IMG/VR virus record: IMGVR_UViG_2645727868_000012
Reading direction: 5' to 3' (one strand)
DNA from: a virus
Lineage: Duplodnaviria; Heunggongvirae; Uroviricota; Caudoviricetes
Length of the DNA: 14,817 nt
This document shows, piece by piece, positions 1-14,817 of the stretch (within the stretch, counting starts at the first letter, position 1; each line of letters opens with the position of its first letter). Below the pieces are notes generated by a model that had not been told where the DNA came from, did no database searches, and was given only the letters and a program-made list of their open reading frames with translations. The position numbers and the translations under genes were made by a program.

Positions 1-1293
<1,293 letters not shown>

Positions 1294-1315
1294 TACCCAA
1301 TTTTTCTGAATCTAA

Positions 1316-1335
1316 AAAGCGCCTGCGGGCGCTTT
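1316..1335 (+). terminator. rho-independent terminator-like hairpin downstream of serS
   Basis: Inverted repeat AAAGCGCC / GGCGCTTT with loop TGCG, 23 bp after the serS stop. Short T run after the stem. Confidence 0.55.
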
Positions 1336-1413
1336 AAGTAGAGGTTTAATCATTTGAAAATAAATGGATTTTATTTTTAAGTGTCCATATAACGTCCATC
1401 TTTGAATGCAAAA

Positions 1414-1449
1414 AGCCCACAGCTTCTATGCTGTGGGCTTTGTTTTTTG
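1414..1449 (+). terminator. strong rho-independent terminator hairpin
   Basis: Perfect 10-bp stem AGCCCACAGC / GCTGTGGGCT, loop TTCTAT, followed by TTGTTTTTT. Preceded by AAAAA, so could act in both directions. Confidence 0.6.
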
Positions 1450-1482
1450 GTGTCCTCATGAGTGAGGGAACCAAAAAGAAAA

Positions 1483-1504
1483 CCCGCAGTTTTTACGCTG
1501 CGGG
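1483..1504 (-). terminator. terminator-like hairpin, minus-strand oriented
   Basis: Stem CCCGCAG / CTGCGGG with 8-nt loop. On the minus strand it is followed by TTTTCTTTTT (complement of 1471-1482). Confidence 0.4.
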
Positions 1505-1930
1505 CTTGTTGTTCACGTCAACTGGAAATAGGGTGCCTTTTCGACCTTTACCCTGGCAACCGATTGACGGGGAAGTTGCCTTCCCCGTCGCGGTTTCCTT
1601 ACTGCTTACACTGTAAGAACGCCGCAAACTCCGCTCCCCAGAAACTCATCCGTATTTCACACAGCGAACCGTGCAGCATCCAGATGATGAGGATTGCCGT
1701 CACGCAGAATGTGATGGCCGTAAGCGATTTTTGCGACATAGCGCTTGCTCCTTTTTCGGGGAGGCGCTAACCTATCACTTGCTGAGGGTAGATGGTTAGG
1801 GCCTCGGGTTAACGTTAAAGTTGACTCGGGGCCTTTCCACATCTGGCCTTCGGGTATTCCCTCCGACCATCAGCCGAAAGGCACCCGCACGTAATCTATC
1901 GCTTTTTTGTTACTCCGGCAATTCTGCCTG

Positions 1931-2191
1931 TTAATTCTGAGATAAAGGCAAACTCATCTGATTGTTTCCCCTGTGTGAAGCTGGCAGATCATGCCACGGG
2001 ATACCTTCTGAAGAGTGAACGCCGGAGGCGTGTTTTGATGTGAATTTATGGAAAGCTTCCAGTGTTGAGAAGCATACGCCGCATTCCAGATTGTTACACT
2101 GGTAATACTTTTGCCGCACGGTGTTTGAATCATTTTCCGGACGACTGGTGCGGATACGGGCAGATGCGCCACAAAGCGGACAACGGAACAT
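1931..2191 (-). CDS. ogr: Ogr/Delta-family zinc-finger late-gene transcription activator homologue (86 aa)
   Basis: ATG at 2191 preceded by AAGGGAGG. Protein MFRCPLCG...YYQCNNLECG shows the C-x2-C-x24-C-x4-C spacing of the P2 Ogr family. C-terminal extension relative to 72-aa P2 Ogr. Confidence 0.8.
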   Translation of the reverse strand: MFRCPLCGASARIRTSRPENDSNTVRQKYYQCNNLECGVCFSTLEAFHKFTSKHASGVHSSEGIPWHDLPASHRGNNQMSLPLSQN

Positions 2192-2231
2192 AGCGACCTC
2201 CCTTAACGTGGTGCTGCCTATTCTAAGTTGC

Positions 2232-3341
2232 TCACTCTGTTTCCGCTATCCATTCCGGGATTTTTGCCTCAAGCTCAAGCTGCGTGGTAAAACCGCTGTT
2301 ATCAATGGTGTGCTCGGCTTTTGCAATGATCCAGTCCTGATTATCAATCTCGCTTTTAAATCCTGTTACCGTGCCATGCATTTCGGGGTAGAGTTCTGCA
2401 CGTCCACGCGCCAGCGTGATGGAGAATGATGCGGCTCCGCGTTGTAGTTGCTGCCACTTTGCCGCCGCTGCGCGTCTTGCTGCCTGCTCGTTCTGATAAG
2501 TCTTGCGTAACACAAACACATTGCCTTCCGCGCCTTCCATATAATCACCTTCGCGGCTGCTGCTTTTCTCCTTTTTGGGTTTTGGCGGTTTACGGCGTTT
2601 CACGCTGACTTTTTTCTTTTTCCCGTAATTAAGATCAAGCCAGTAAGCGCGTACCCCCGTATACGCTTCGCGGTCAGCAATGCGGAACTGATGGCGATCG
2701 CCGCTGCTGCGTGTGATGGCAAACGATGGCAACGGCTGGCCCTGTGCGTTCACGCCACCGCCGGGCATGATGAATAACAGATTACCGCTTTTTACCGTGG
2801 TGATTGCGCCCAGCATTTCCGCCATGCGCGTAAGGAAGGACATGTCGCTTTCTTCGGTCTGGTCGGCGTGGTCGATTTCGATATCCATCAGCATTTCGCT
2901 GATTTGCGGTTTCAGACCATACCGATGAGCGATGGCGGATACCACACGCTCAACGGTCACATCATGCCAGGACACCTCACGTTTAACGTTAAATTCATCC
3001 CGAAAATCTGCGCTTCTGGCTGAAACAGTCAGCCTGTCCGGCGGTCCTTCGTGAGCGATTTCATCAACAATGTAAGTGCCTTTTTCTGTCAGCGGTTCTC
3101 CTTTCCAGCCAATGAGAACCGTCAGGCGCGCGCCCCGTGGCGGTAGCTGCAACTGACCATCCGCATCATCCAGCGTGATGGTGAGCTGGTCCGCCTCAAA
3201 TCCCCGGTTGTCGGTCAGTGACAGGCTCATCAGGCGCTCTGCCACGCCTGACAGCGTTTTACCCTCCGCGAGAATATCAAAATCCGGCATTTTCACGGGG
3301 TCTGTGCCCTGACTGAGCAATTGCATGGTGGTGTCGGTCAT
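2232..3341 (-). CDS. D: P2 gpD-like tail protein (369 aa from ATG at 3341)
   Basis: Track ORF 2232..3473 begins at an upstream non-canonical start. The internal ATG at 3341 (MTDTTMQLLSQG...) has an AGGGAGGGAG Shine-Dalgarno and matches the gpD N-terminus as I recall it. Followed on the same strand by ogr, as in P2. Confidence 0.88.
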   Translation of the reverse strand: MTDTTMQLLSQGTDPVKMPDFDILAEGKTLSGVAERLMSLSLTDNRGFEADQLTITLDDADGQLQLPPRGARLTVLIGWKGEPLTEKGTYIVDEIAHEGPPDRLTVSARSADFRDEFNVKREVSWHDVTVERVVSAIAHRYGLKPQISEMLMDIEIDHADQTEESDMSFLTRMAEMLGAITTVKSGNLLFIMPGGGVNAQGQPLPSFAITRSSGDRHQFRIADREAYTGVRAYWLDLNYGKKKKVSVKRRKPPKPKKEKSSSREGDYMEGAEGNVFVLRKTYQNEQAARRAAAAKWQQLQRGAASFSITLARGRAELYPEMHGTVTGFKSEIDNQDWIIAKAEHTIDNSGFTTQLELEAKIPEWIAETE

Positions 3342-3498
3342 CTGCTCCCTCCCTGTGCGGCATGGTCGCATGTGCGTGCGGAGGGGGTTACTGCTTTTTG
3401 TTGTCGCCGTGGCGGGAGAACGGCGCAGGGGTGAGATTACGCGCGTGGTGGGTGATGATTGTTGCCGAATCATTTAACGGATACAAGGGGCTGAAGCT

Positions 3499-4683
3499 AT
3501 GAGTGAAACTCGTTTTCATGGTGCCCGTGTCACGGAAAGTACCGACCTGGTAACAGCGATTAATGATGTTGATTCCAGCGTTATCGGTATCGTGGCAACG
3601 GCGGATGATGCGGATGCGGAGCTGTTCCCGCTGAACAAGCCCACACTGCTGACCCGCGTCAATGACGTGCTGGGAAAATGCGGGACTACGGGGACGCTTT
3701 ATCGTGCGCTTAAGGCTATCGCAGACCAGGTGAGCACAAAAGTGATCGTCGTTCGCGTGGCTGAACACAAAGAAGAAGGCGGTAGGACGCAGGATCAACT
3801 GGTTATCGGTGGTTCTGAATCTGACGGCAGCTATACGGGGATGTATGCGCTGCTTGTTGCAGAGCAGGATGAAAGCATCGGATACCGTCCGCGTATTCTG
3901 GCCGCGCCGGAGCTGGACACGGAGGCGGTGACAAAATCCCTGTGCGTGATTGCGGGTAAACTGCGCGCGTTTGTGTATGCCACATGTCATGGTTGTAACA
4001 CGATGGCTGAGGCGATTACCTACCGCCAGAAATTCAACGAACGTGAGGTGATGCTCTTATGGCCTGACTTCATCGCCTACAACCCGAAAAGTGGCAAAAA
4101 CGAAACGTTCCCCGCGCCTGCTTATGCGTGCGGCCTTCGTGCGTACATTGACCATGAGCAGGGCTGGCACAAATCGCTGTCCAACGTTCCGGTTAAAAAT
4201 GTGCTGGGGATGTCGAGGCATGTGTTCTGGTCGTTACAGGCCGAAGACAGTGATGCCAACAGCCTCAACAACAAAGAAATCACGACCATTATTCGTCGTA
4301 ACGGGTTCCGCTTCTGGGGCAACCGCACACCGGAAACGAACGCCTACATCTTTGAGGTGTATACCCGAACCGCACAGGTGCTGGCTGATTCAATTGCGGA
4401 AGCGCAGTTTGAAACCATCGACAGTCCACTGACGCCTGCGAACGTGAAGGATGTTATCAGTGCCATCAGGGCAAAATTGGATTCGCTGGTTACTGCCGGG
4501 AAACTGATTGGCGCGGAGTGCTGGTATGACGTGGTGGATAACGGCACCACGGATTTACGTCAGGGGCGTGTGCGTATTCGCTACAAATATACGCCCGTTC
4601 CCCCGCTGGAAGACATGGAGCTTTACCAGACGTTTACTGATGAATTCTTTGGTCCCGCATTTGCGGTGCTGGGAGGTGCCTGA
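3499..4683 (+). CDS. FI: contractile tail sheath protein, P2 gpFI-like (394 aa)
   Basis: Length and sequence character of P2 FI sheath. ATG at 3499 with AAGGGG upstream. Stop overlaps the next start (TGATG). Confidence 0.95.
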   Translation: MSETRFHGARVTESTDLVTAINDVDSSVIGIVATADDADAELFPLNKPTLLTRVNDVLGKCGTTGTLYRALKAIADQVSTKVIVVRVAEHKEEGGRTQDQLVIGGSESDGSYTGMYALLVAEQDESIGYRPRILAAPELDTEAVTKSLCVIAGKLRAFVYATCHGCNTMAEAITYRQKFNEREVMLLWPDFIAYNPKSGKNETFPAPAYACGLRAYIDHEQGWHKSLSNVPVKNVLGMSRHVFWSLQAEDSDANSLNNKEITTIIRRNGFRFWGNRTPETNAYIFEVYTRTAQVLADSIAEAQFETIDSPLTPANVKDVISAIRAKLDSLVTAGKLIGAECWYDVVDNGTTDLRQGRVRIRYKYTPVPPLEDMELYQTFTDEFFGPAFAVLGGA

Positions 4684-5195
4684 TGGCTGTACCAAAACAT
4701 CTTCGCTTTTTTACGTTGTTTGTGGATGGTGAAAACGAAGTGGGTAAAGTGACATCCGTCACGCCGCCCAAACTGACGCGCAAAACCGACAGCTATCGTG
4801 GTGGTGGCATGATGGGAGCAGTAAGTATTGATCTCGGTCTGGACGACTCCGCGCTTGATGCGAGCTTTGTCATGGGGGGAGCTGTTCGTGCACTGTTCCT
4901 TAAGTATGGCGGCACGATTGACGGCACGCTGCTGCGTTTTGCGGGTGAATATTACACCGATGCAGAAAGCGATCTGTATGAAATCGAGATGCGCGGGCGT
5001 GTGACGGAAATTGATATGGGGGAGGCCAAACAGGGCGAAGCCACATCACACACTTACGCTGTCAAAAACACCTACTACAAGCTGAGCGTTAACGATCGCC
5101 CGCTGTGGGAAATCGACCTGTTGAACCACATCTACCGGAAGGACGGCAAGGACATTGTGCCTGACCGCATTCGTTCCGCGCTTGGGCTTGGCTGA
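4683..5195 (+). CDS. FII: tail tube protein, P2 gpFII-like (170 aa)
   Basis: GGGAGG 6 nt upstream of ATG 4683. Translational coupling with FI. Size and sequence as for P2 FII. Confidence 0.95.
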   Translation: MAVPKHLRFFTLFVDGENEVGKVTSVTPPKLTRKTDSYRGGGMMGAVSIDLGLDDSALDASFVMGGAVRALFLKYGGTIDGTLLRFAGEYYTDAESDLYEIEMRGRVTEIDMGEAKQGEATSHTYAVKNTYYKLSVNDRPLWEIDLLNHIYRKDGKDIVPDRIRSALGLG

Positions 5196-5250
5196 TAAGT
5201 AATATGCAGGCGGCGCAGTGCGTCGCCTCTGACTGAAAAGGAGACAACTG

Positions 5251-5625
5251 ATGAAAGATATCGATACTGAAACCCGGAATAACACCGTAGCGGATGATGT
5301 GACGTCAGGTGAGGATATGGCTGTCGAACGTGGTGTAAAACTTTCCCGGCCAATTGAGCGTGGTGCCGAAAAAATCACATATGTGGAGATCACCGGGGCT
5401 ATTGAGCAGGCGGGATCCCTGCGTGGTCTGTCGCTGTCTGATGTGCTGAATCTGAAAGCGGATACCATGTTCACGCTGTTGCCTCGCGTGACCTCGCCAC
5501 GACTGGATGAAGTGATGATTAAAAAAATGTCGTCACGCGATTTTATTCAGTTGTGCGCTGTGGCTGTAAATTTTATGAGCGAGCCAGACTCTGGCGCGAA
5601 GAGCGTGCAGGAGACGGCAGCGTAA
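5251..5625 (+). CDS. E: tail assembly chaperone, P2 gpE-like (124 aa)
   Basis: AAGGAG 8 nt upstream of ATG 5251. Position between tube and tape-measure genes. A -1 frame ORF overlaps its 3' end. Confidence 0.85.
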   Translation: MKDIDTETRNNTVADDVTSGEDMAVERGVKLSRPIERGAEKITYVEITGAIEQAGSLRGLSLSDVLNLKADTMFTLLPRVTSPRLDEVMIKKMSSRDFIQLCAVAVNFMSEPDSGAKSVQETAA

Positions 5626-5789
5626 TCACCCTGGTGTGCTTTGAGCACATCGAAGATCTGGTGGCGGATATTGCCGCCATTTTCAACTGGTCGCCCGCCG
5701 AAATCTTCATGATGACGCCCGGCGAAGTGGTTAGCTGGCGTGAGCGGGCGGCACTTCGCAGCGGGAATGCAGATAATGAAGACTCTTGA
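5251..5789 (+). CDS. E+E' fusion product predicted from programmed -1 ribosomal frameshift (about 179 aa if the slip is at 5568-5574)
   Basis: The -1 frame is open from 5523 to TGA 5787-5789 and overlaps the E 3' end. Candidate slippery heptamer A_AAT_TTT at 5568-5574 in the E frame. Analogous to P2 E/E+E' and lambda G/GT. Confidence 0.6.
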
Positions 5790-8583
5790 CATCCGGGTCG
5801 CTTTCAGCGCCGTTGACAGGCTGACCCGGCCTGCCGAAAACGCCCGCCGCCTGATGGGGCAGTTTGGTGACTCCATTCAGCGAACGCAGGGGGCGATCAA
5901 AAATCTCGAGCGTCAGGCGCGTTCATTTGAGCGCGCCCGCGACGCTGTCAGTAAAGCGGATGCGGGTATCGTGAAAGCACGACGCCAGCTTAACGCCCTT
6001 AATCAGTTACAACGCACGGGTACAGTGCTCAGCGAAAAACAACAAAAGCTGATGCAGCAGTTAAGCACCCGGCTTGAACGCCTGAATGAATCGCGCACAC
6101 GGGAAATTCAGAAAATGCGGGAGCTTGGCGGAGAACTGAAACGCCACGGCATTTCCCTGACAGGCAGCGATAACACCATCCAGCAGGCCATCAGACGCAC
6201 CGAACAATACAACAACCAGCTTGAACGCGAACGGCAGGCGCTTGCGCGTGTAACGCAGGCTCGTGAGCGGTATTCGCGCGCGCAGGAAACCGCGGGAAAA
6301 CTGAAAACAGGTGGTGCGCTGGCAATTGGTGCGGCAGCGGCGGGCGGCTATGCTGCCGGGCGTTTTTTGCAGCCCGCGATCGGGTTCGGCAAAGAGATGT
6401 CCCGCGTTCAGGCGCTGACGCGAATCGACAAAAACAGCCCGCAGTTTAAGGCGCTGCGTGAGCAGGCGTTAAAACTTGGCTCTGAAACACAGTTTACTGC
6501 GAGTGATGCCGCCAGTGGGCAGAGCTTTCTGGCAATGGCTGGTTTTACTCCGCAGGCCATTCAGGCCGCATTGCCCGGTGTTCTTAATATGGCGCTGGCA
6601 GGTGGCGTCGAACTCGGCGAGACGGCTGATATAGGCTCCAATATCCTCACACAGTTCAACCTGACAGCCGATCAAATGGACCGGGTTGGCGATACGCTGA
6701 CAGCGGCATTCACCCGGACCAATACTGATTTACGCGCGCTGGGCGAAACCATGAAGTATACCGGTCCGGTTGCCGCAAAACTTGGTATCAGTCTTGAAGA
6801 AGCGGCAGCCATGGCCGGGATGCTTGCCAATAATGGTCTTCGTGGAAGCGATGCTGGTACGGCCATGCGCGCAAGTCTGTCCCGCCTTGCATCACCGCCA
6901 AAAGCTGCGGCTGATGCGCTGAAAGAGCTGGGGGTGTCAGTTGCTGACGCCAGAGGCAAAATGCGCCCGATGGAGGATGTGCTGCTTGATCTCTATAAGG
7001 CGACACAAAAATACGGACAGGTGGACCAGGTTTCCTTCTTCAAGGACATCGCCGGAGAAGAGGCGTTCGTTGGTTTGCAGACGCTTGTTGCGGCGGCTGG
7101 TTCAGGAGAGCTGCAAAAACTGACCAGAGAATTGCAGGGGGCAAGGGGAGAGGCCGATCGCGTTGCAAAAGTAATGGCCGATAATCTTGATGGGGACCTG
7201 AAAAATCTCGACAGCGCATGGGAAGGTCTTCGTATTCGCATCAGTGATCTGGTTGACGGTCCGCTGCGTTCTGTCACGCAGTGGCTCACGCGGGTGCTTG
7301 AAAAAATCACCTCGCTGGCGCAGGCCCATCCGGTACTGACGCGCCAGCTACTGATAGCAGGCGGTGCGTTGCTGGCAATGACTGCAACGGTTGGCTCGTT
7401 GTCGCTGGCTATTGGTGTGCTTGCTGGCCCGCTGGCAAAACTGCGTCTTGGCTTTTCCCTCCTGACCGGTTCAATGAATGCTGTCAGACTCCTGCCAGCA
7501 CTATGGGGAATGGTGACGGGTTCCGTTTCGTTACTGGGGGGCGCTATCGGGGCGTTGTTCAGTCCGGTCGGCCTTATCGTGGCTGCGCTTGCCGGAGCTG
7601 CCGTTCTCATCTGGAAATACTGGGATCCCATCAGGGCATTTTTTGCCGGGGTGTTCAGCGGGATTATGGAAAGGCTGACCCCGTTGCGCGAAACCTTTGA
7701 ACGGTTTGGTCCTGTTTTTGACGCAATCGGGAGTGGGATCAGCCAGGTGTTTAACTGGTTTAAATCGCTGCTGTCTCCGATGGAGTCCAGCAAGGAAACT
7801 CTGGATAAATGTACCAGTGCTGGCGAGATATTCGGTAACGTTCTTGGCGGTGCGTTACAACTTGTTCTGACACCTGCAAAAATGTTGCTGGATACGCTGG
7901 CGTGGATACTTGAAAAGCTTGGTGTGCTTCCGGATGAAGCGGAAAGGGCGCGCAAGAAAATCGAAGACGCACAGCGTGCGGCCATTCTTCAGGACAAGGT
8001 TGCCTTGCTTCAGGGGGACCTGGCGAAAATCAATCCGCCGAAGCCTGTGGAAAATGGCAATGGCACCGGAGGTGATAACCCCAAAGACAATAAACCGCTC
8101 ACAGACAGCAATACCGGTACGCTGCGCAGACTCAGCAAAATTGCTGATAACACAGGTAAGCTGGTTGAGGAGACGAAAAAACGCATTGGCCCCGGCGATA
8201 TTGTCTTTAAAAACCTGCCCCGAGCACTTGCTGTTCGTGGGGAGTGGCAGGAGCGGAAGATTGCGCAGGTCAGTAAGCCTGCCCCCGCAATTAATATCAC
8301 ACCCGTGGTCCCGGCTCCGCTGCCTCCGGCGCTGGTCCCTGTTGTTGCGGCCAGCTCCCGCCCGGTGGCGGAGGCTATACGATCTCCAGTGGCATCAGTT
8401 CCTGTAACTTCCCGTAACCGGGAGCCTGTTGCCTCCGGATTTGGTGGTGAAATTCATGTTCATCTGCATAACGTTGTTACGCAGAATCCCCGCGAACTGG
8501 CGAAACTGGTCGGTGAAATGGTCAGGGCAGAAATGGAACGGCGCGCCCGTGCCGGGCGTGGCAGTTTTTACGATAAAGATTGA
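5767..8583 (+). CDS. T: tail tape measure protein, P2 gpT-like (about 938 aa)
   Basis: Long ORF after E/E' with coiled-coil-rich N-terminal half, hydrophobic central stretches and Pro/Ala-rich C-terminal region. Track start 5740 is GTG; first ATG is 5767 (alternative 5776). Start uncertain, overlaps the E' end. Confidence 0.9.
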   Translation: MQIMKTLDIRVAFSAVDRLTRPAENARRLMGQFGDSIQRTQGAIKNLERQARSFERARDAVSKADAGIVKARRQLNALNQLQRTGTVLSEKQQKLMQQLSTRLERLNESRTREIQKMRELGGELKRHGISLTGSDNTIQQAIRRTEQYNNQLERERQALARVTQARERYSRAQETAGKLKTGGALAIGAAAAGGYAAGRFLQPAIGFGKEMSRVQALTRIDKNSPQFKALREQALKLGSETQFTASDAASGQSFLAMAGFTPQAIQAALPGVLNMALAGGVELGETADIGSNILTQFNLTADQMDRVGDTLTAAFTRTNTDLRALGETMKYTGPVAAKLGISLEEAAAMAGMLANNGLRGSDAGTAMRASLSRLASPPKAAADALKELGVSVADARGKMRPMEDVLLDLYKATQKYGQVDQVSFFKDIAGEEAFVGLQTLVAAAGSGELQKLTRELQGARGEADRVAKVMADNLDGDLKNLDSAWEGLRIRISDLVDGPLRSVTQWLTRVLEKITSLAQAHPVLTRQLLIAGGALLAMTATVGSLSLAIGVLAGPLAKLRLGFSLLTGSMNAVRLLPALWGMVTGSVSLLGGAIGALFSPVGLIVAALAGAAVLIWKYWDPIRAFFAGVFSGIMERLTPLRETFERFGPVFDAIGSGISQVFNWFKSLLSPMESSKETLDKCTSAGEIFGNVLGGALQLVLTPAKMLLDTLAWILEKLGVLPDEAERARKKIEDAQRAAILQDKVALLQGDLAKINPPKPVENGNGTGGDNPKDNKPLTDSNTGTLRRLSKIADNTGKLVEETKKRIGPGDIVFKNLPRALAVRGEWQERKIAQVSKPAPAINITPVVPAPLPPALVPVVAASSRPVAEAIRSPVASVPVTSRNREPVASGFGGEIHVHLHNVVTQNPRELAKLVGEMVRAEMERRARAGRGSFYDKD

Positions 8584-8595
8584 GGAGTCATGGCC

Positions 8596-9084
8596 ATGAT
8601 GATGATCTACGGCATGTTTGTTTTTGAGCTGCGCACGCTGCCGCATCAGCAGTTACAGCAAAACAAAAGCTGGCGGCATGTGAAAAATGAACGCGTTAAC
8701 CGTTCAGCAAGCTGGCAGTATATCGGTGCAGGTGATGATCGCATCGTTCTTTCTGGTGTGCTTTATCCTGAAATTACAGGTGGCGAAGTGTCGCTGTCGC
8801 TGCTGACCACGCAGGCGTATACAGGACGACCCTGGCCTTTGATTGATGGCGTCGGGCAGATTTACGGCATGTATGTCCTGACTGAAACGAATACGACCCG
8901 CTCCGAGTTTGATCGCTACGGTAAGGCGAAAAAGATAGAATTTTCACTGACTCTTGAACGCTGTGATGAGGATTTGCGGGAGCGCCTGCAATCCTCATCG
9001 TTCAGTGATATGCTGTCCGGCTTCAAAGATAAGGTGACATCATCTCTTAACAGCGCGGCCAGTTCAGTTAAAGGGCTGTTCTGA
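8596..9084 (+). CDS. U: tail protein, P2 gpU-like (about 162 aa)
   Basis: GAGGAG at 8582-8587. ATG 8590 is only 2 nt from it, so ATG 8596 (MMMIYGMF...) is the more likely start. Sequence character of P2 gpU. Confidence 0.9.
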   Translation: MMMIYGMFVFELRTLPHQQLQQNKSWRHVKNERVNRSASWQYIGAGDDRIVLSGVLYPEITGGEVSLSLLTTQAYTGRPWPLIDGVGQIYGMYVLTETNTTRSEFDRYGKAKKIEFSLTLERCDEDLRERLQSSSFSDMLSGFKDKVTSSLNSAASSVKGLF

Positions 9085-9093
9085 TTTAACACA

Positions 9094-9123
9094 AAAACCG
9101 CTAATGGTCAGATTAGCGGTTTT
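9094..9123. terminator. bidirectional terminator hairpin between convergent U and invertase genes
   Basis: Perfect stem AAAACCGCTAAT / ATTAGCGGTTTT with loop GGTCAG. T-rich on both sides. The 3' arm overlaps the invertase stop codon. Confidence 0.6.
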
Positions 9124-9712
9124 CATTTTCCTGAGTCTGCCCGGTTGTTTCTTCAGTCTGTATATCGCCTACAGGGTGATAACGATAAATCGTCGATGTG
9201 CCAATGCCGTAAATTATTGCCAGTTGTTTTCTGTCGTGCCCGTTTTTGATTAGCCTTGCTATTTGCTCATGCTGTTCTTTTGTCAGCTTCGGTCGACGTC
9301 CGCCTGTGCGCCCCCTTGCGCGCGCTGCCGCCAGCCCGGCCAGTGTACGTTCAACAATTAATTCACGTTCCATTTCAGCCAGGGCACCCATCACGTGGAA
9401 GAAAAAACGCCCCATTGGAGAAGATGTGTCTATGCTGTCGGTCAGACTGCGAAAATTAATCCCTCGCTCCCGTAGTTCCCCGACGAGAGAAATCAGATGT
9501 TTCATGCTTCGCCCGAGGCGATCCAGTTTCCAGACAACCAGCGTGTCACCTTTTTGAAGGCGCTTTAAAGCGCGTTTTAATCCCGGTCGGTCTGTCTTTG
9601 TCCCGCTTAATTTATCTTCAAATATTTGTTCACATCCTGCACAAACAAGAGCGTTTCGTTGCAGGTCTGTATTCTGGTCATTTGTTGATACCCTTACATA
9701 GCCAATCAGCAC
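9113..9712 (-). CDS. pin: site-specific DNA invertase, serine recombinase of the Pin/Gin/Cin/Hin family (199 aa from GTG 9712)
   Basis: Protein ...LIGYVRVSTNDQNTDLQRNAL...LVVWKLDRLGRS... has the catalytic Ser motif and C-terminal helix-turn-helix region typical of Gin-family invertases. Track start 9730 is TTG; GTG 9712 has a GGGAGA Shine-Dalgarno 6 nt upstream. Lies beside the crossover site. Confidence 0.93.
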   Translation of the reverse strand: MLIGYVRVSTNDQNTDLQRNALVCAGCEQIFEDKLSGTKTDRPGLKRALKRLQKGDTLVVWKLDRLGRSMKHLISLVGELRERGINFRSLTDSIDTSSPMGRFFFHVMGALAEMERELIVERTLAGLAAARARGRTGGRRPKLTKEQHEQIARLIKNGHDRKQLAIIYGIGTSTIYRYHPVGDIQTEETTGQTQENENR

Positions 9713-9766
9713 ACTGAATCTCCCGTCCAAAAGCGCAAATCATGCCATGCAGGCCAGAAACGGCCA

Positions 9767-9792
9767 TTATTTAAAACCTCGGTTTACGAGAA
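9767..9792. promoter_or_regulatory. left crossover site (gix/pix-type), 26 bp
   Basis: TTATTTAAAACC TC GGTTTACGAGAA: two 12-bp half-sites around a central dinucleotide. Matches the Gin gix sequence as I recall it at about 22 of 26 positions. Coincides exactly with the outer boundary of the inverted repeat. Confidence 0.8.
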
Positions 9793-10488
9793 CTCGGCAC
9801 AAGCGGGGAGAAAATACCGTTACTCAGTACAGCGAATACCTGGACCAATCGACAAACATTCAGCGGTGGCCTTTCTGGGGAACTGTCCGGCAATGCCGCT
9901 ACTGCAACAAAGCTGAAAACAGCACGAAAAATTGCTGGAGTTGGTTTTGATGGTTCTAGCGATATTTCAATTAGTGCCAAAAATGTCAATGCATTTGCAC
10001 TCCGACAAACAGGTAATACTGTTAATGGTGATACATCCGTTGGATGGAATTGGGATAGTGGTGCATATAACGCCATGATTGGTGGTGCATCTGCATTAAT
10101 TCTTCACTTTAATATAAATGCTGGTAGCTGTCCTGCCGTACAATTCCGTGTGAATTATAAAAATGGTGGCATTTCCTACAGGTCGGCTCGTGATGGTTAT
10201 GGGTTTGAATTAGGTTGGTCAGATTTCTATACCACGACACGAAAACCTTCAGCGGGAGATGTTGGTGCATATACGCGGACAGAATGTAACTCAAGGTTTA
10301 TTACAGGTATTCGCCTTGGCGGTCTGTCATCTGTTCAGACATGGAATGGTCCCGGCTGGTCTGACAGGTCAGGTTATGTCGTTACGGGTTCAGTTAACGG
10401 AAACCGTGATGAATTAATTGATACAACACAGGCAAGGCCAATTCAGTATTGCATTAATGGGACGTGGTATAACGCGGGGAGTATTTAA
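9775..10488 (+). CDS. tail-fibre C-terminal variable cassette (Sv-like), open frame without start codon; about 237 codons
   Basis: Frame is open from just after TAA 9772-9774 to TAA 10486-10488. First in-frame ATG is 10075 (the track ORF). Ends with the ...INGTWYNAGSI motif shared with the opposite cassette. Confidence 0.75.
   Translation, partial: NLGLRELGTSGEKIPLLSTANTWTNRQTFSGGLSGELSGNAATATKLKTARKIAGVGFDGSSDISISAKNVNAFALRQTGNTVNGDTSVGWNWDSGAYNAMIGGASALILHFNINAGSCPAVQFRVNYKNGGISYRSARDGYGFELGWSDFYTTTRKPSAGDVGAYTRTECNSRFITGIRLGGLSSVQTWNGPGWSDRSGYVVTGSVNGNRDELIDTTQARPIQYCINGTWYNAGSI
9777..9891. repeat. left arm of the inverted repeat (about 115 bp, 3 mismatches to right arm)
   Basis: Direct comparison of 9777-9891 with the reverse complement of 12416-12530. 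Encodes the shared fibre segment [40 protein letters not shown]. Confidence 0.85.
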
Positions 10489-10490
10489 CG

Positions 10491-11024
10491 ATGATGCACT
10501 TAAAAAACATTACTGCTGGCAACCCTAAAACAAAAGAGCAATACCAGCTAACAAAGCAATTTAACATCAAATGGCTTTATTCAGCTGATGGAAAAAACTG
10601 GTATGAGGAACAAAAGAATTTCCAGCCAGACACTTTGAAAATGGTCTATGACCATAACGGCGTTATTATTTGTATTGAAAAGGATGTTTCAGCAATTAAT
10701 CCGGAAGGCGCAAGCGTCGTTGAATTACCTGATATTACAGCAAATCGCCGGGCTGATATTTCGGGGAAATGGATGTTCAAAGATGGCGTAGTGGTAAAGC
10801 GAACTTATACCGAGGAAGAGCAGAGGCAACAAGCGGAAAATGAAAAGCAGAGCCTGTTGCAACTTGTCAGGGATAAAACTCAGCTATGGGACTCACAGCT
10901 ACGGCTGGGCATCATTTCCGACGAGAATAAACAAAAATTAACCGAGTGGATGCTCTATGCGCAGAAAGTCGAATCCACAGACACCTCCAGCCTGCCAGTA
11001 ACATTTCCCGAACAACCTGAATGA
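10491..11024 (+). CDS. tfa: tail fibre assembly protein (Tfa / Mu U-like), 177 aa
   Basis: ATG 2 nt after the cassette stop. About 175 aa MMHLKNI... protein with the conserved Tfa N-terminus. Paralogous to the minus-strand copy. Confidence 0.9.
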   Translation: MMHLKNITAGNPKTKEQYQLTKQFNIKWLYSADGKNWYEEQKNFQPDTLKMVYDHNGVIICIEKDVSAINPEGASVVELPDITANRRADISGKWMFKDGVVVKRTYTEEEQRQQAENEKQSLLQLVRDKTQLWDSQLRLGIISDENKQKLTEWMLYAQKVESTDTSSLPVTFPEQPE

Positions 11025-11027
11025 GAC

Positions 11028-11057
11028 AAGGCCCGATAACGGGCCTTAATTTTTATT
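11028..11057. terminator. bidirectional terminator between the convergent tfa genes
   Basis: Stem AAGGCCCG / CGGGCCTT, loop ATAA, followed by AATTTTTATT. Confidence 0.65.
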
Positions 11058-11580
11058 CAGGCTTTTGTGGCCATTCAGGATTTGCCGTATCCACACGGTT
11101 GACCAGAACACTGTAGCGTTCCCATGCTTCCAGTCGTGTGCGTTCCTCGTCTGTTGCCATATTCAGCCTGACAGCGCGTTCCAGCGGCTGGATGACTGAT
11201 TCAGCTTCGGAAAGCAATGCGGCCTTTTGTGATTCGGCCTGTTGTTGCTGTTCGTCAGCCGTATAAATCCGTTTAACCACAGCTCCGTCCTTAAACATCC
11301 ACTTACCGGAATCATCGGTCCGACGATTGGCCGTTATATCGGGAACCTCGACGACGCTAAAACCTTCGGGATTAAGCGTGGAGGCATCTCTGGTGATGGC
11401 GACAATAATATTATTTTCATCGTAAACAATCTTTATGGTGTCTGGCTGAAAGTTTTTCACTTCCTCATACCAGTTTTTTCCGTCCTCAGAGTAAAGCCAG
11501 ATAACTCCGTGTTTCTTTGTTAACTCATACTGTTCCAGTGTTTTAGCATTACCCGCTTTTATGTTCTTTAAGTGCATCAT
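11053..11580 (-). CDS. tfa: tail fibre assembly protein (Tfa' / Mu U'-like), 175 aa
   Basis: ATG at 11580 one nt after the upstream cassette stop. Same family as 10491..11024, with a divergent C-terminal half. Confidence 0.9.
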
Positions 11581-11581
11581 A

Positions 11582-12574
11582 TTAAACGCTCGCTACATTA
11601 TACCAGGTGCCATTTATATACTTTTGAACGGGTCTGTAATAAACACCCGCTATATTATCGGCAGAGTTAGACCCTGTATCCTGAACATTAATACCAGACA
11701 ATACATGACCTGAAGGGCACTGGAAATTCCATGTTCGCCAGTTGTTCACTCCATAATATTGCTGTGAACCAAGTCGAACATCTTTCACATAACGGGAATC
11801 AAAGTTACCGTAATCCGAGGGATTAACACGCCCCGTAATATTTATGGTCTTATTACTTTGAATGCTTCCGGGAACAAAGCGCATAACATGGACGTAATTA
11901 GCATAAACATCCAGATTACCATCGCCATTTTGTTTAAAGCCCGTGTCATTATCACCCAATACAATCGAATTACCGCCAAGAGCACTGGATGTTCCGATAC
12001 CCAGTGCACCATTCAGTTGACCACCAGATAACGGCAGTGCACCAACATCTCCTGCTGAAGGTTTTCTGGTGGTGGTGTAAAATTCGGACCAGTCGGCTTC
12101 AAAACCATAACCATCACGGGCTGAACGATAAAAAATACCGCCATTTTTATAATTAATCCGAAACTGAGCTGCAGGACAACTTCCGTCTCCCATATAAAAA
12201 TGAATAATTAACGTTGATGCACCACCAATATTTGCGTTATAGGCTCCGCTACTCCAGTTCCATCCAACTGCTTTATCATTCGCAACGGTGCTTCCTGTTT
12301 TCCCTAAGGCAAACGCACCAACATGACTTGCTTTTAATGTGATATCGGAGGAACCATCAAAAGCCACATTGCTTATTTTCCTGGCAGTTTTTAATTTTGC
12401 AGCTGTAGAAGCATTGCCGGATAGTTCACCAGAAAGGCCACCGCTGAATGTTTGTCGATTAGTCCAGGTATTCGCTGTACTGAGTAACGGTATTTTCTCC
12501 CCGCTTGTGCCGAGTTCTCGTAAACCGAGGTCGCTCTTGTTTGTGCAGGATATGAACAAATATTTGAAGATAAA
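11582..12574 (-). CDS. tail-fibre C-terminal variable cassette (Sv'-like), open frame without ATG; about 330 codons
   Basis: Minus-strand frame open from just after the stop at 12575-12577 (plus coordinates) to the stop at 11582-11584. Only a TTG at 12559, just outside the crossover site. Shares the scaffold with the left cassette, then has a longer, different tip. Confidence 0.75.
12416..12530. repeat. right arm of the inverted repeat
   Basis: Reverse complement matches 9777-9891 with 3 mismatches. Lower identity continues further into the cassettes. Confidence 0.85.
12515..12540. promoter_or_regulatory. right crossover site, hybrid: canonical inner half and centre, non-canonical outer half
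   Basis: TTCTCGTAAACC GA GGTCGCTCTTGT. The inner half and centre are identical to the left site. The outer half is invertase coding sequence, not a gix half-site. Confidence 0.6.
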
Positions 12575-12664
12575 TTAAGCGGAACAAGGACAGGCCGACC
12601 TGGATTAAAACGTGCTTTAAAGCGCCTTCAAAAAGGTGACGCACTGGTTGTCTGAAAACTGGAC
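12530..12664 (+). pseudogene. 5' fragment of a second Pin-family invertase gene (about codons 21-60), frameshifted and truncated
   Basis: Translation [41 protein letters not shown] then a frameshift. About 90% nucleotide identity to the corresponding part of the intact invertase gene. Homology stops near 12664. Confidence 0.8.
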
Positions 12665-12799
12665 TGACTGGTTCACTGTATGCGGCATCTTGTCGTGCTG
12701 GTGGTGGAAGCCTAGAAAAAGTATCGGGTGTTACTGAACCGTGTTGATACATCAACTGCACCTGATATTGAGTGGCCTACGAACCCTGTCAGGGAGTAA
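12665..12799 (+). pseudogene. 3' remnant of a tail-fibre-assembly-like gene (in-frame TAG, indel)
   Basis: Translates to ...[32 protein letters not shown], matching the C-terminus of ORF 13579..13848 with an in-frame stop. No start codon. Confidence 0.6.
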
Positions 12800-12848
12800 T
12801 CATTGGGATTATGCCGCAGCACGTCTTAAGCAAGAACGTGCTGCGGTT
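12696..12848. repeat. direct repeat copy 1 (tfa 3' end plus downstream hairpin)
   Basis: About 90% identical to 13751-13898. Contains an 11-bp perfect stem CCGCAGCACGT / ACGTGCTGCGG at 12814-12846. Confidence 0.7.
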
Positions 12849-12853
12849 GGATG

Positions 12854-13522
12854 CTATTTTTTCCCTGAAGCGGAAAACATTACTACAGTACCTTGAACCT
12901 TGGTTTTAACATTCTCGAAATGCTCTGAGAGTATATGTGTTAAGCCTTCTTCGGAATCTTTTGTGTTTGAAAAGATGCCTTTCTGATTGTAAATGCGCAT
13001 CAGTTTTTGACCGAAGCTATTGTGCACAACTCCATCGCCAAGAATTGTGGCTCCGTATAGAGTTCCATCGTCAGTTAAGGCCTGCGCCGCATTGCGTATT
13101 ACACAGCTTTTTGTAGATATATTTCCAGGCAGGCAGTGAAGAAGGTAAAACATGGAAATGGAATCAAATTGACCATGTAACGCCGCGGGATAAGGTTCAA
13201 AAACATCATGGCTAATTTTATGTTTAATTTTTGATTCCCCAGCCCTTGTAGATGCCGCGTTCAGGCTAGCTTCGTTCAAATCCATTAAAGATATCAGACT
13301 ACTCTCAGGTACGTGAGTAAGGTAAAACCCAGTTCCAACACCAATATCCAGATGGTTGTTACCTACATGTTCCAGAAAGTGTGGAAGAAGGTGTTCCTTT
13401 GTAGGACATCCCCATGCAAGCCGATTTGATACTCCCAAAACCCACCAGTCATAAAGCTTTAGGGTAAGTGGTGTGTAAATTTTAGCCCCATCATCTGTGT
13501 TTTTTTTCATTGATTTCACCAT
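12854..13522 (-). CDS. class I SAM-dependent methyltransferase, substrate unknown (222 aa)
   Basis: Motif I HLDIGVGTGFY, acidic post-I SLMDLNE, motif II-like FDSISMFYLLHCLP, motif III-like LTDDGTLY. No DPPY/NPPY or PCQ DNA-methyltransferase motifs. Markedly AT-rich relative to the flanks. ATG 13522, alternative ATG 13510. Confidence 0.85.
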   Translation of the reverse strand: MVKSMKKNTDDGAKIYTPLTLKLYDWWVLGVSNRLAWGCPTKEHLLPHFLEHVGNNHLDIGVGTGFYLTHVPESSLISLMDLNEASLNAASTRAGESKIKHKISHDVFEPYPAALHGQFDSISMFYLLHCLPGNISTKSCVIRNAAQALTDDGTLYGATILGDGVVHNSFGQKLMRIYNQKGIFSNTKDSEEGLTHILSEHFENVKTKVQGTVVMFSASGKK

Positions 13523-13578
13523 GTTATAGTTTTATTTGTGAATTAAATCAATTATGGCGATGAATTACAAGGGGTTAA

Positions 13579-13848
13579 ATGCTGCCGCAGCATAGCGATA
13601 TTGAAATAGCCTGGTATGCTTCGATACAGCAGGAGCCGAATGGCTGGAAGACCGTCACCACACAGTTCTACATCCAGGAATTCAGTGAGTATATTGCGCC
13701 ACTGCAGGATGCTGTAGATCTGGAAATCGCAACGGAGGAAGAAAGATCGTTGCTGGAGGCATGGAATAAATATCGGGTATTGTTGAATCGTGTTGATACA
13801 TCAACTGCACCTGATATTGAGTGGCCTGCAAATCCTGTCAGGGAGTAA
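13579..13848 (+). CDS. short tail-fibre-assembly-like protein (89 aa, Tfa C-terminal domain homologue)
   Basis: C-terminal 50 aa (...[37 protein letters not shown]) resemble the Tfa C-termini in the invertible segment. N-terminal 40 aa unique. ATG at 13579. Confidence 0.65.
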
Positions 13849-13898
13849 TCATTGGGATTATGCCGCAGACACGTCGTATGCAGGAACGTGCTGCGGTT
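13751..13898. repeat. direct repeat copy 2
   Basis: Matches 12696-12848. The hairpin here is imperfect (one bulge). Confidence 0.7.
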
Positions 13899-13962
13899 AG
13901 TTTGTGAGCTTTCGATAGTGGTTGTTATTTTTGCCCTTATTTGTTCCGGAGGCCATGGTTCA

Positions 13963-14133
13963 ATGGTCCGTCTGCCCCCTGTGGTGATGTCAGCAAAATC
14001 AGCCACTGCGCGAACCACAATAGCCCGGGAAGATGCTGAAGATCACCAGGTAAAGCTGTCAGCGCAGAAACTGGAAGAACTGCTCGCATCAATGGTTAAG
14101 GATGAGGTTGATCGCAATGATGGGATTTATTGA
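13963..14133 (+). CDS. hypothetical small protein (56 aa)
   Basis: GGAGG at 13948-13952, ATG 13963 (10-nt spacing). Charged and helical-looking sequence. Track ORF starts further upstream at a non-ATG codon. An in-frame extension past the TGA is noted in findings. Confidence 0.4.
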   Translation: MVRLPPVVMSAKSATARTTIAREDAEDHQVKLSAQKLEELLASMVKDEVDRNDGIY

Positions 14134-14227
14134 CGTCAGCGAGAGCAGAAGGAAGAACTGAATAACCTGAATGATTTACGCTCAATCAGAGCGATGGCGA
14201 TTAGCGGCAATCACGCTCGATAAAATT

Positions 14228-14250
14228 AACCCCGGTGATCATCCGGGGTT
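14228..14250. terminator. bidirectional terminator between the small ORF and the Rha gene
   Basis: Stem AACCCCGG / CCGGGGTT around palindromic loop TGATCAT, followed by TTTTG on the plus strand and TTAATTTTA on the minus strand. Confidence 0.65.
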
Positions 14251-14259
14251 TTGCATTCA

Positions 14260-14817
14260 TTAAAACCGCATCAACCTTTCCACCAATTGTTCTTTACGGG
14301 CAACGATCCACCCATGTTGCTCCAGATAAAATTTAAACCGTTCCAGCGTGCATACCATCGCATCGGCGGGGACTTTTTCTGTGAACTCGACCTGACCGTG
14401 TTTATCGAAGTGGATCAGTAATGCGCATCCATTATTTGGGGCGGGGGAGTTTTGTGCTGCAGGAGGACGTTTGTGGAGTTCTTCTTCCATTGCGTTAAAT
14501 TTTTCAATGTAAGCTTCTTTTAGTCTGGCTGCTTTTTTGCCAGTAAATCCCATTACGAGGAACATGAAGCCGTCTTTTGTGATCAGGTAGCATCGTGATT
14601 CACGTTCTGCGCCGTTGCCAATTTCGACAGTCTGAACATCGGCCGAAAAGTTGGCTGATGTAAATTCGGGAGAGCAGTCGAGTGTGTCAATCTTAGCTAA
14701 AACGTGTTTATGTTGTTTATCGAAGTAGTCGGCAACAGCTTGAGAGGTGGTAACCAGGCGACCATCTTTGAAAAAGACTTTTGGTGACTCGTTAGAAAAA
14801 GTTATAGCTGTATTCAT
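14260..14817 (-). CDS. phage regulatory protein, Rha family (185 aa); start codon at the window edge
   Basis: N-terminal region ...VTTSQAVADYFDKQHKHVLAKIDTL...RCYLITKDGFMFLVMGFTGKKAARLKEAYIEKFNAME fits the Rha/antirepressor-like domain pattern. The ATG is the last 3 nt of the window, so the true start could lie outside. Confidence 0.8.
   Translation of the reverse strand: MNTAITFSNESPKVFFKDGRLVTTSQAVADYFDKQHKHVLAKIDTLDCSPEFTSANFSADVQTVEIGNGAERESRCYLITKDGFMFLVMGFTGKKAARLKEAYIEKFNAMEEELHKRPPAAQNSPAPNNGCALLIHFDKHGQVEFTEKVPADAMVCTLERFKFYLEQHGWIVARKEQLVERLMRF

Follow-up and report, generated by a model that had tools for sequence, protein, structure and literature searches.

The stretch of DNA analysed here (the window, 14,817 nucleotides) contains a phage tail-fibre segment with outward-reading invertase sequence on both of its flanks: an intact gene on the left and, on the right, a fragment without a 5' end that is joined directly to what remains of a crossover site. 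This raises the question of how the fragment came to lie there, and whether the join records the action of an invertase, a recombination between prophages or the way in which the sequence was put together. The sequence-only reading had recognised the invertase sequence on both flanks and had taken the right-hand junction for the product of an aberrant recombination. The first of these views has stood up, the second only in part.

The invertible segment and its two flanks

The left flank carries a gene for a serine DNA invertase of the Pin/Gin type (9113-9712, minus strand, 199 aa), which belongs to the P2-like prophage Phi1. Its product has both the Resolvase catalytic domain (Pfam, E = 1.4e-50) and a C-terminal HTH (HTH_7, E = 4e-13), and is annotated in strain 4/1-1 as a recombinase family protein (WP_000905061.1). 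The gene lies behind a 26-bp crossover site at 9767-9792, TTATTTAAAACC TC GGTTTACGAGAA, which is the site listed as Phi1_3prime by Forde et al. (Table 3 of PMC4134206). This site agrees with the consensus at 22 of 22 specified positions and is the sole match in the window at three mismatches or fewer (0.01 expected by chance). Most of the initial description is borne out at the coordinates given.

Inside the segment, an alternative tail-fibre C-terminal part (9779-10488, plus strand; annotated as a phage tail protein with its N-terminus missing) shares inverted repeats with the opposite end and is promoterless in the present orientation. It is followed by a tail fibre assembly gene of 177 aa (10491-11024, plus strand; annotation). 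Facing these are a second annotated assembly gene of 175 aa (11053-11580, minus strand) and the variable C-terminal part of the tail-fibre gene H (11582-12514, minus strand; Pfam gp37_C). The annotation, the inverted repeats (I1, I3, I4 and I5) and the gp37_C match together describe an invertible segment with two opposed alternative tail-fibre C-termini, each with its own assembly gene. In strain 4/1-1, gene H occupies positions 11583-13805 of the Phi1 locus (L002), where the variable part continues rightwards into the constant part. The constant part is present in all relatives and is absent from the window, where the right flank consists of an invertase pseudogene instead.

This arrangement can be set beside the classical systems Gin/G of Mu, Cin/C of P1, Pin/P of e14 and Hin/H of Salmonella. 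Like them, the window has an outward-reading serine invertase gene at a 26-bp site and two opposed sets of tail-fibre C-terminus and assembly gene, and an enhancer is predicted here in the 5' coding region of the invertase gene. Unlike them, it has only one complete site, lacks the constant tail-fibre part on the far side and has a dead second invertase in its place.

At the right end of the segment, the crossover site is reduced to a remnant at 12515-12531, made up of the inner half-site TTCTCGTAAACC, the core GA and the GGT of the outer half. Read over a full 26 bp (12515-12540), the sequence is TTCTCGTAAACC GA GGTCGCTCTTGT: the inner half and core are perfect, the outer half stops at GGT and the remaining nine bases are not site-like. 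As a result, only 15 of the 22 specified consensus positions agree. The window therefore lacks a pair of inverted 26-bp sites with matching core, a pair that is present at both parental loci in relatives. A site with one good half would be expected to be a poor substrate for inversion, in line with the earlier suggestion that the degenerate outer half-site impairs inversion.

Immediately to the right of the remnant lies a 5'-truncated invertase pseudogene (12532-12715, plus strand), identified by its identity to the intact gene and by a Pfam Resolvase match. Beginning at position 12532 (CGCTCTTGT...), the plus strand corresponds to the sense strand of the intact gene, so the fragment reads outward. 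It starts at nucleotide 60 of the gene (codon 20/21). Pairwise alignment of 12532-12664 with nucleotides 60-192 of the intact gene gave 123 identities in 133 positions (92.5%), ungapped, which agrees with the stretch of roughly 135 bp and about 90% identity noticed at first; over other spans the ungapped identity was 94/100 and 127/140. A repeat search returned the same relationship as a pair of inverted arms (9476-9653 and 12532-12709) of 178 nt at 83%. The 40-aa translation of the fragment matches positions 29-69 of the 145 in the Pfam Resolvase profile (E = 4.9e-7), well above chance.

The fragment is not itself a serine invertase, since it lacks the catalytic-serine region, covers profile positions 29-69 only and contains two stops. 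These are in-frame TGA codons at 12653-12655 (W61*) and 12665-12667 (R65*). The frame continues through them, so the frameshift that had been proposed after ...DALVV is not there, and recognisable invertase homology (stop-KLD-stop-LVHCMRHLVVLVVEA) extends to about 12710. The end of the remnant is fused to the C-terminal fragment of a tail fibre assembly gene (12716-12799, plus strand; Pfam Caudo_TAP positions 107-130 of 131, E = 5.5e-11), which is a pseudogene in the existing annotation. Further to the right is a class I SAM-dependent methyltransferase gene (12854-13522, minus strand), a passenger (moron) gene of lambdoid right arms, as indicated by Pfam, by annotation and by its occurrence in many lambdoid prophages. 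An Rfam scan of the whole window returned no family at gathering score.

Origin of the two halves and anatomy of the junction

The window is a chimera of two prophages of Escherichia coli ST131. Positions 1-12531 are 100% identical, with 0 mismatches, to the P2-like prophage Phi1 beside serS in strain 4/1-1, and positions 12532-14817 are 100% identical, again with 0 mismatches, to the right arm of the lambdoid prophage Phi4 of the same strain. Phi4 is inserted in ompW, adjoining trpA, and in relatives the sequence to the right of the window runs ash - ompW' - trpA. The two loci lie on the same strand, approximately 527-529 kb apart, in all six complete genomes that occur on both match lists.

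Both switches have been described in strain EC958 by Forde et al. 2014 (PLoS One 9:e104400, PMC4134206). The Phi1 invertible segment is 2773 bp long and is accompanied by an intact invertase gene. That of Phi4 is 3106 bp long and its invertase is "severely truncated". The 26-bp sites at the two loci are near-identical, and these authors proposed that inversion of the Phi4 segment is carried out in trans by the enzyme of Phi1. The window agrees with the EC958 systems at 100% identity on each side of the junction. Its left site is Phi1_3prime, the inner half and core of its right site are those of both Phi1_5prime and Phi4_3prime, and its fragment has the same two stop codons as the EC958 Phi4 pseudogene. 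It differs from EC958 and the other complete genomes in that these contain two complete systems approximately 527-529 kb apart, whereas in the window the two are fused and 122 bp are missing.

The fragment is thus the pre-existing, already described pseudogene of the ST131 prophage Phi4 (pin'), long decayed, and not a new product of invertase action. In strain 4/1-1 the same pseudogene, including codons 1-20, carries the label 'recombinase family protein, missing C-terminus' in the annotation, and in all relatives it keeps a normal 26-bp crossover site, a leader and codons 1-20.

The junction between Phi1 (left) and Phi4 (right) falls at 12531/12532, with 0 mismatches to the Phi1 locus L002 on one side and to the Phi4 locus (L001) on the other. 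The region reads ...CCGAGTTCTCGTAAACC GA GGT|CGCTCTTGTTTGTGCAGGATATGAAC... In the Phi1 reference, GA is followed by GGTATTCGATAA, which continues into the constant part of H, and the junction sequence there is ...CCGAGGTATTCGATAACGGC. The order in the Phi4 reference is segment, then TTCTCGTAAACC GA GGTTTTAGATAA, a 54-nt leader, a GTG with codons 1-20, and then the right half of the window. Compared with Phi4, exactly 122 bp are missing (L001 9153-9274, TTTAGATAATGGCGG...CTGCAACGAAA); these take in the outer half-site as well as the leader and codons 1-20.

The break falls not at the crossover centre, as had been stated, but three nucleotides further right, counted from the central GA dinucleotide. 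It is visible as GGT|CGC; the parental sequences at this point are GGT|TTT (Phi1) and AAA|CGC (Phi4), with no dinucleotide shared between them at the break. Inspection of the two ends of the 122-bp gap showed neither microhomology nor a hairpin. Adjoining the break on its left is a repeat common to Phi1 and Phi4, which is exact over 300 bp (12232-12531) and approximately 99% identical over about 1.2 kb. Because the window matches Phi4 as well through this repeat, the switch from Phi1 to Phi4 may sit anywhere within it. The left breakpoint is the last base of the 300-bp exact repeat, and position 12531 is also the last base common to the Phi1_5', Phi1_3' and Phi4_3' sites. No repeat boundary falls at the right breakpoint, which coincides only with the first Phi4-specific 21-mer.

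We looked for the same junction elsewhere. Phi1-left and Phi4-right sequences were adjacent in 0 of 5,426 complete E. coli genomes (0 records at a coverage of at least 80%), and a 48-mer spanning the junction was absent from these genomes and from the phage collection. In exact scans, a 34-mer across the junction was absent from the GTDB representatives, the JGI metagenomes and IMG/VR, and a 22-mer was absent from the GTDB representatives and the JGI metagenomes. The same 80 bases are present in 239 genomes, with 122 bp in between. For the three ORFs that span the junction (325, 100 and 79 aa), there is no exact protein on record. The intact invertase protein occurs in ten distinct public neighbourhoods, all of them with the normal order V-W-J-I-H-[segment]-invertase-U-T-E-FII-FI, and the public neighbourhoods of the methyltransferase show normal arrangements only. 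In all related prophages examined, a normal tail-fibre organisation runs across this point, which tells against an aberrant recombination product on the terms that the sequence-only reading had itself set. The pseudogene and both switches are already published; the junction is private to this window and probably not biological.

Accounts of the join

The account suggested at first was that an invertase had acted at a secondary site. The invertase would have joined the right crossover site to a quasi site that covers codons 20-24 in an invertase gene, much as Cin does, with the fusion at the crossover centre. The break does lie inside the 26-bp site and near its core, and a weak site-like palindrome (14/22) occurs at nucleotides 62-87 of both invertase genes. 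Recombination at quasi sites is established for Cin (Iida and Hiestand-Nauer 1987, as cited in PMC4134206). The Cin cases (Iida and Hiestand-Nauer 1986, 1987) would resemble the window in having a half-site fused to unrelated DNA and a hybrid site with a degenerate outer half. They differ in that exchange takes place at the central dinucleotide and the partner is recognisably site-like; neither applies to the window.

Several features of the junction make this account very improbable. Serine invertases cut and exchange strands at the 2-bp core of the site, and a secondary-site recombinant should therefore read inner half, core and then the right half of the partner. The window still has the GGT of the original outer half, the break is three nucleotides off the core and the parents have no dinucleotide in common there. 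The native invertase gene in the register of the junction (ACAGATCTGCAA CG AAACGCTCTTGT) agrees with the consensus at only 2 of 22 positions and the nearest register with a GA core at 6 of 22, both below the background mode of 7 in the window. A scan of the invertase gene for a gix-like pseudo-site gave the palindrome at nucleotides 62-87 as its best candidate (14/22); its core, CA, is the wrong one and lies 14 nt downstream of the break. An ancestral pseudogene allele reading ...NNGAGGTCGCTCTTGT would also be needed. Finally, the sites would be in direct orientation, and wild-type Gin/Hin-type invertases do not recombine direct repeats (the topological filter). Of the earlier proposal, the junction between two prophages remains, and the option of 'two prophage copies' pointed in the right direction; invertase action at a secondary site (2/22, with the break off the core) does not.

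A second account is a single illegitimate join, for example by misrepair of a break, between the Phi1 crossover-site region and nucleotide 60 of the Phi4 pseudogene. It would have arisen in a minority or non-viable subpopulation and been caught as a variant contig. The lack of homology at the break is what such a join would leave, and PacBio assemblies of ST131 are reported to capture minority arrangements as separate contigs (PMC4134206). Against this, E. coli has little end-joining capacity, a loss of approximately 527-529 kb is implied, and nothing in this account explains why the left end falls where the shared repeat stops. We regard this account as improbable, less markedly so than quasi-site recombination.

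The third biological account is a real rearrangement between the two prophages. Recombination, either RecA-dependent or assisted by an invertase, would have taken place in the near-identical segments of about 1.2 kb, and a separate deletion of 122 bp would then have taken away the outer half-site of Phi4 together with the leader and codons 1-20, leaving the segment locked. Two routes can be envisaged: integration of an excised Phi4 circle into Phi1, or deletion in a cell with a large tandem duplication. With 300 bp of exact identity and about 99% over 1.2 kb, the repeat has a length sufficient for homologous recombination. The crossover sites of Phi1 and Phi4 are almost the same, and there are reports both of inversion in trans and of translocation of tail-fibre segments from one ST131 prophage to another. 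If a Phi4 circle were integrated, the order would be segment - site - pin' - methyltransferase - Rha, with no loss of chromosome. This account nevertheless calls for two or three rare events, independent of each other and confined to a single genome, and the deletion must end exactly at the last base common to the sites, with no microhomology. In addition, simple recombination between the two loci would delete approximately 527-529 kb with its essential genes. A real rearrangement is thus possible, if rather unlikely.

The scale of that loss bears on all direct joins. With the loci oriented as they are in relatives, a join of Phi1-left to Phi4-right is the junction of a deletion of approximately 527-529 kb. 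This interval contains serC, aroA and ycaO, and on the established map of E. coli it also holds essential genes such as rpsA, fabA, rne, acpP and prfA. Every inversion among the four crossover sites was worked through as well, and none of them places invertase genes on both flanks.

The leading explanation is an assembly chimera, because the Phi1 and Phi4 halves lie approximately 527-529 kb apart in near-identical genomes. On balance, we infer that the join is an artefact of assembly or of sequence construction. It is private; it bears no signature of site-specific exchange, of homologous ends or of microhomology; it implies the loss of approximately 527-529 kb; and it falls in a known trouble spot. 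For these reasons an artefact is the most likely of the four accounts. The mis-join would have passed through the repeat common to the two invertible tail-fibre segments and skipped 122 bp. As would be expected of a chimera, the junction is absent from independent near-identical assemblies and the join runs through a repeat common to both loci, which is too long for short reads to resolve.

There are precedents for errors at these loci. Spurious contigs were found at both of them in PacBio assemblies of ST131 (PMC4134206), and the linear ends of several complete records lie only a few kb from the Phi1 or Phi4 locus. The pseudo-chromosome of NA114 breaks at EC958 position 958223, which corresponds to window position 9668 and lies within the intact invertase gene (supplementary BLAST table of EC958 against NA114, PMC4134206). 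The NA114 misassembly (PMC4134206) resembles the window in having a private junction within prophage repeats and flanks identical to distant loci of close relatives. NA114 is the only ST131 record with a known misassembly; it was considered as the source of the chimera and rejected, since it breaks at 9668, where the window is contiguous.

Several points count against an artefact. A simple chimera by repeat collapse would keep the 122 bp, so that a second error is needed (for example, a gap that was closed, a contig end that was trimmed or pieces that were naively joined). The right breakpoint lies away from any repeat boundary, NA114 is not the source, and viable biological routes to the same arrangement exist. 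Two ways of accounting for the right-hand break were tried and set aside. The first took both breaks to be contig ends in a De Bruijn graph. Of the two, the left is a true branch point; the right fits only at k = 21, and this fit is weak because some value of k fits almost any break near a SNP. Further shared 21-mers downstream of the right break would also break a De Bruijn contig. The second took a third invertase copy, that of Phi2, to supply a repeat boundary at nucleotide 59/60; it is approximately 80% identical and has no long exact word there.

The predicted enhancer and the meaning of the fragment

The fragment had also been suggested to supply an extra copy of the Fis-dependent recombinational enhancer. 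In Hin, the enhancer is 65 bp long with a Fis site at each end, and lies in the N-terminal coding region, some 100 bp away from hixL. In its middle are ATTTA and TAATG, which would fit the Hin codons for D-L-Q-R-N-A. By homology to Hin, an enhancer is predicted in the intact gene at 9628-9691 (minus strand), from nucleotide 22 to about nucleotide 86. Its putative Fis sites are at nucleotides 22-36 (9677-9691) and 71-85 (9628-9642), on either side of the codons homologous to Hin DLQRNA (nucleotides 46-63). The centre of the proximal predicted Fis site is 96 bp from that of the crossover site.

The fragment starts at nucleotide 60, in the middle of this predicted element, and it would therefore keep only the distal Fis site, GTGCAGGATATGAAC (12543-12557, plus strand), which is homologous to nucleotides 71-85 of the intact gene. 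The proximal predicted site (nucleotides 22-36) lies within the missing 122 bp. The fragment thus appears to retain at most one of the two predicted Fis sites and not an extra enhancer. At the normal Phi4 locus, the first 192 nt of the pseudogene are 94% identical to the intact gene; to judge from this identity, the enhancer there is probably intact, which fits inversion in trans.

Taken literally, the locus in the window would be a dead switch, in which one site is complete and the other is reduced to a half-site, the constant tail-fibre part is missing and the right side keeps half of the predicted enhancer. Were the rearrangement real, which we think doubtful, the right arm of Phi4 would have been captured by the Phi1 invertible segment in an ST131 isolate through their shared cassettes, possibly aided by the trans-acting Phi1 invertase, and the 122-bp deletion, by removing the outer half-site and half of the predicted enhancer, would then have left a locked fossil switch with an outward-reading invertase gene on either side. 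It would be a direct record of homology between invertible segments driving the fusion of two prophages or a large chromosomal rearrangement. Such a record would be of moderate interest for prophage evolution, but the system would not be of a novel type.

If the join is an artefact, as we consider the better reading, it serves as a caution. Tail-fibre cassettes shared between prophages are places where ST131 assemblies break or are mis-joined, and "aberrant recombination products" at such junctions need read support before they are interpreted. The biology that survives would then be that already published: a decayed Phi4 invertase gene that keeps its 5' end, which would retain the enhancer, beside a segment that would be flipped in trans by the enzyme of Phi1.

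Gene order and left end of the P2-like prophage

In this P2-like prophage family the sheath-tube-E/E'-tape measure-U tail block lies on the strand opposite to D/ogr and to H-I-J-W-V (window 3499-9084 compared with 1931-3473 and 9113-12531), and the invertase gene has gpU on one side and the tail-fibre switch on the other. The whole arrangement is kept in all ten of the public neighbourhoods of the intact invertase (L013-L022). It is therefore how this family is normally laid out, not the result of a rearrangement.

At the left end, a Hok/Gef-family toxin gene (1599-1739, minus strand) lies in the interval that separates serS from ogr of the prophage. An Rfam scan of the whole window returned no Sok-type antisense RNA, nor a family of any other kind, at gathering threshold. 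The gpD-like ORF (2232-3473, minus strand) encodes 413 aa in the window. For the identical sequence in strain 4/1-1, RefSeq gives only a 266-aa VgrG/Pvc8-family protein and a small pseudogene; this discrepancy is probably one of annotation and not of sequence.

The two invertase copies and the DNA beyond the remnant

Both invertase genes carry at nt 62-87 (window 9628-9653 and 12533-12558) a palindrome, CTCTTGTTTGTG CA GGATRTGAACAA, which weakly resembles a crossover site (14 of 22 consensus positions, within the top 0.3% of the window). In each copy there is overlap between this palindrome and the distal Fis site predicted for the enhancer.

The DNA that follows the Phi4 invertase remnant on its right (12716-14223) is a series of gene fragments, with an intact SAM-dependent methyltransferase gene (12854-13522, minus strand) among them. 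It is preceded by a tail-fibre assembly C-terminal fragment (12716-12799). After it come a further assembly-gene fragment (about 13672-13848), then a pseudogene of the DUF4376 type (about 13945-14223) and lastly the gene for a Rha regulator (14260-14817). The methyltransferase is found again at this position in many other lambdoid prophages, which have differing tail fibres.

Possible assembly breaks and the common tail-fibre cassette

Several 'complete' ST131 chromosome records (NZ_CP019000.1, NZ_CP019015.1, NZ_CP018991.1, NZ_CP018953.1, NZ_CP019012.1, NZ_CP024717.1 and NZ_CP035819.1) begin or finish about 0.4-10 kb from the invertible segment of Phi1 or Phi4, which suggests frequent breaks in assemblies at these heterogeneous, repeated loci.

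The variable tail-fibre cassette at the right site of Phi1 and that beside the dead Phi4 invertase are identical over 300 bp (window 12232-12531; 8853-9152 in L001, the Phi4 reference locus of strain 4/1-1) and approximately 99% identical over about 1.2 kb, reaching to about 11330 in the window. Such near-identity between cassettes carried by unrelated prophage types, one P2-like (Phi1) and the other lambdoid (Phi4), about 527-529 kb apart, points to a recent event between the two, either an exchange of cassettes or gene conversion.
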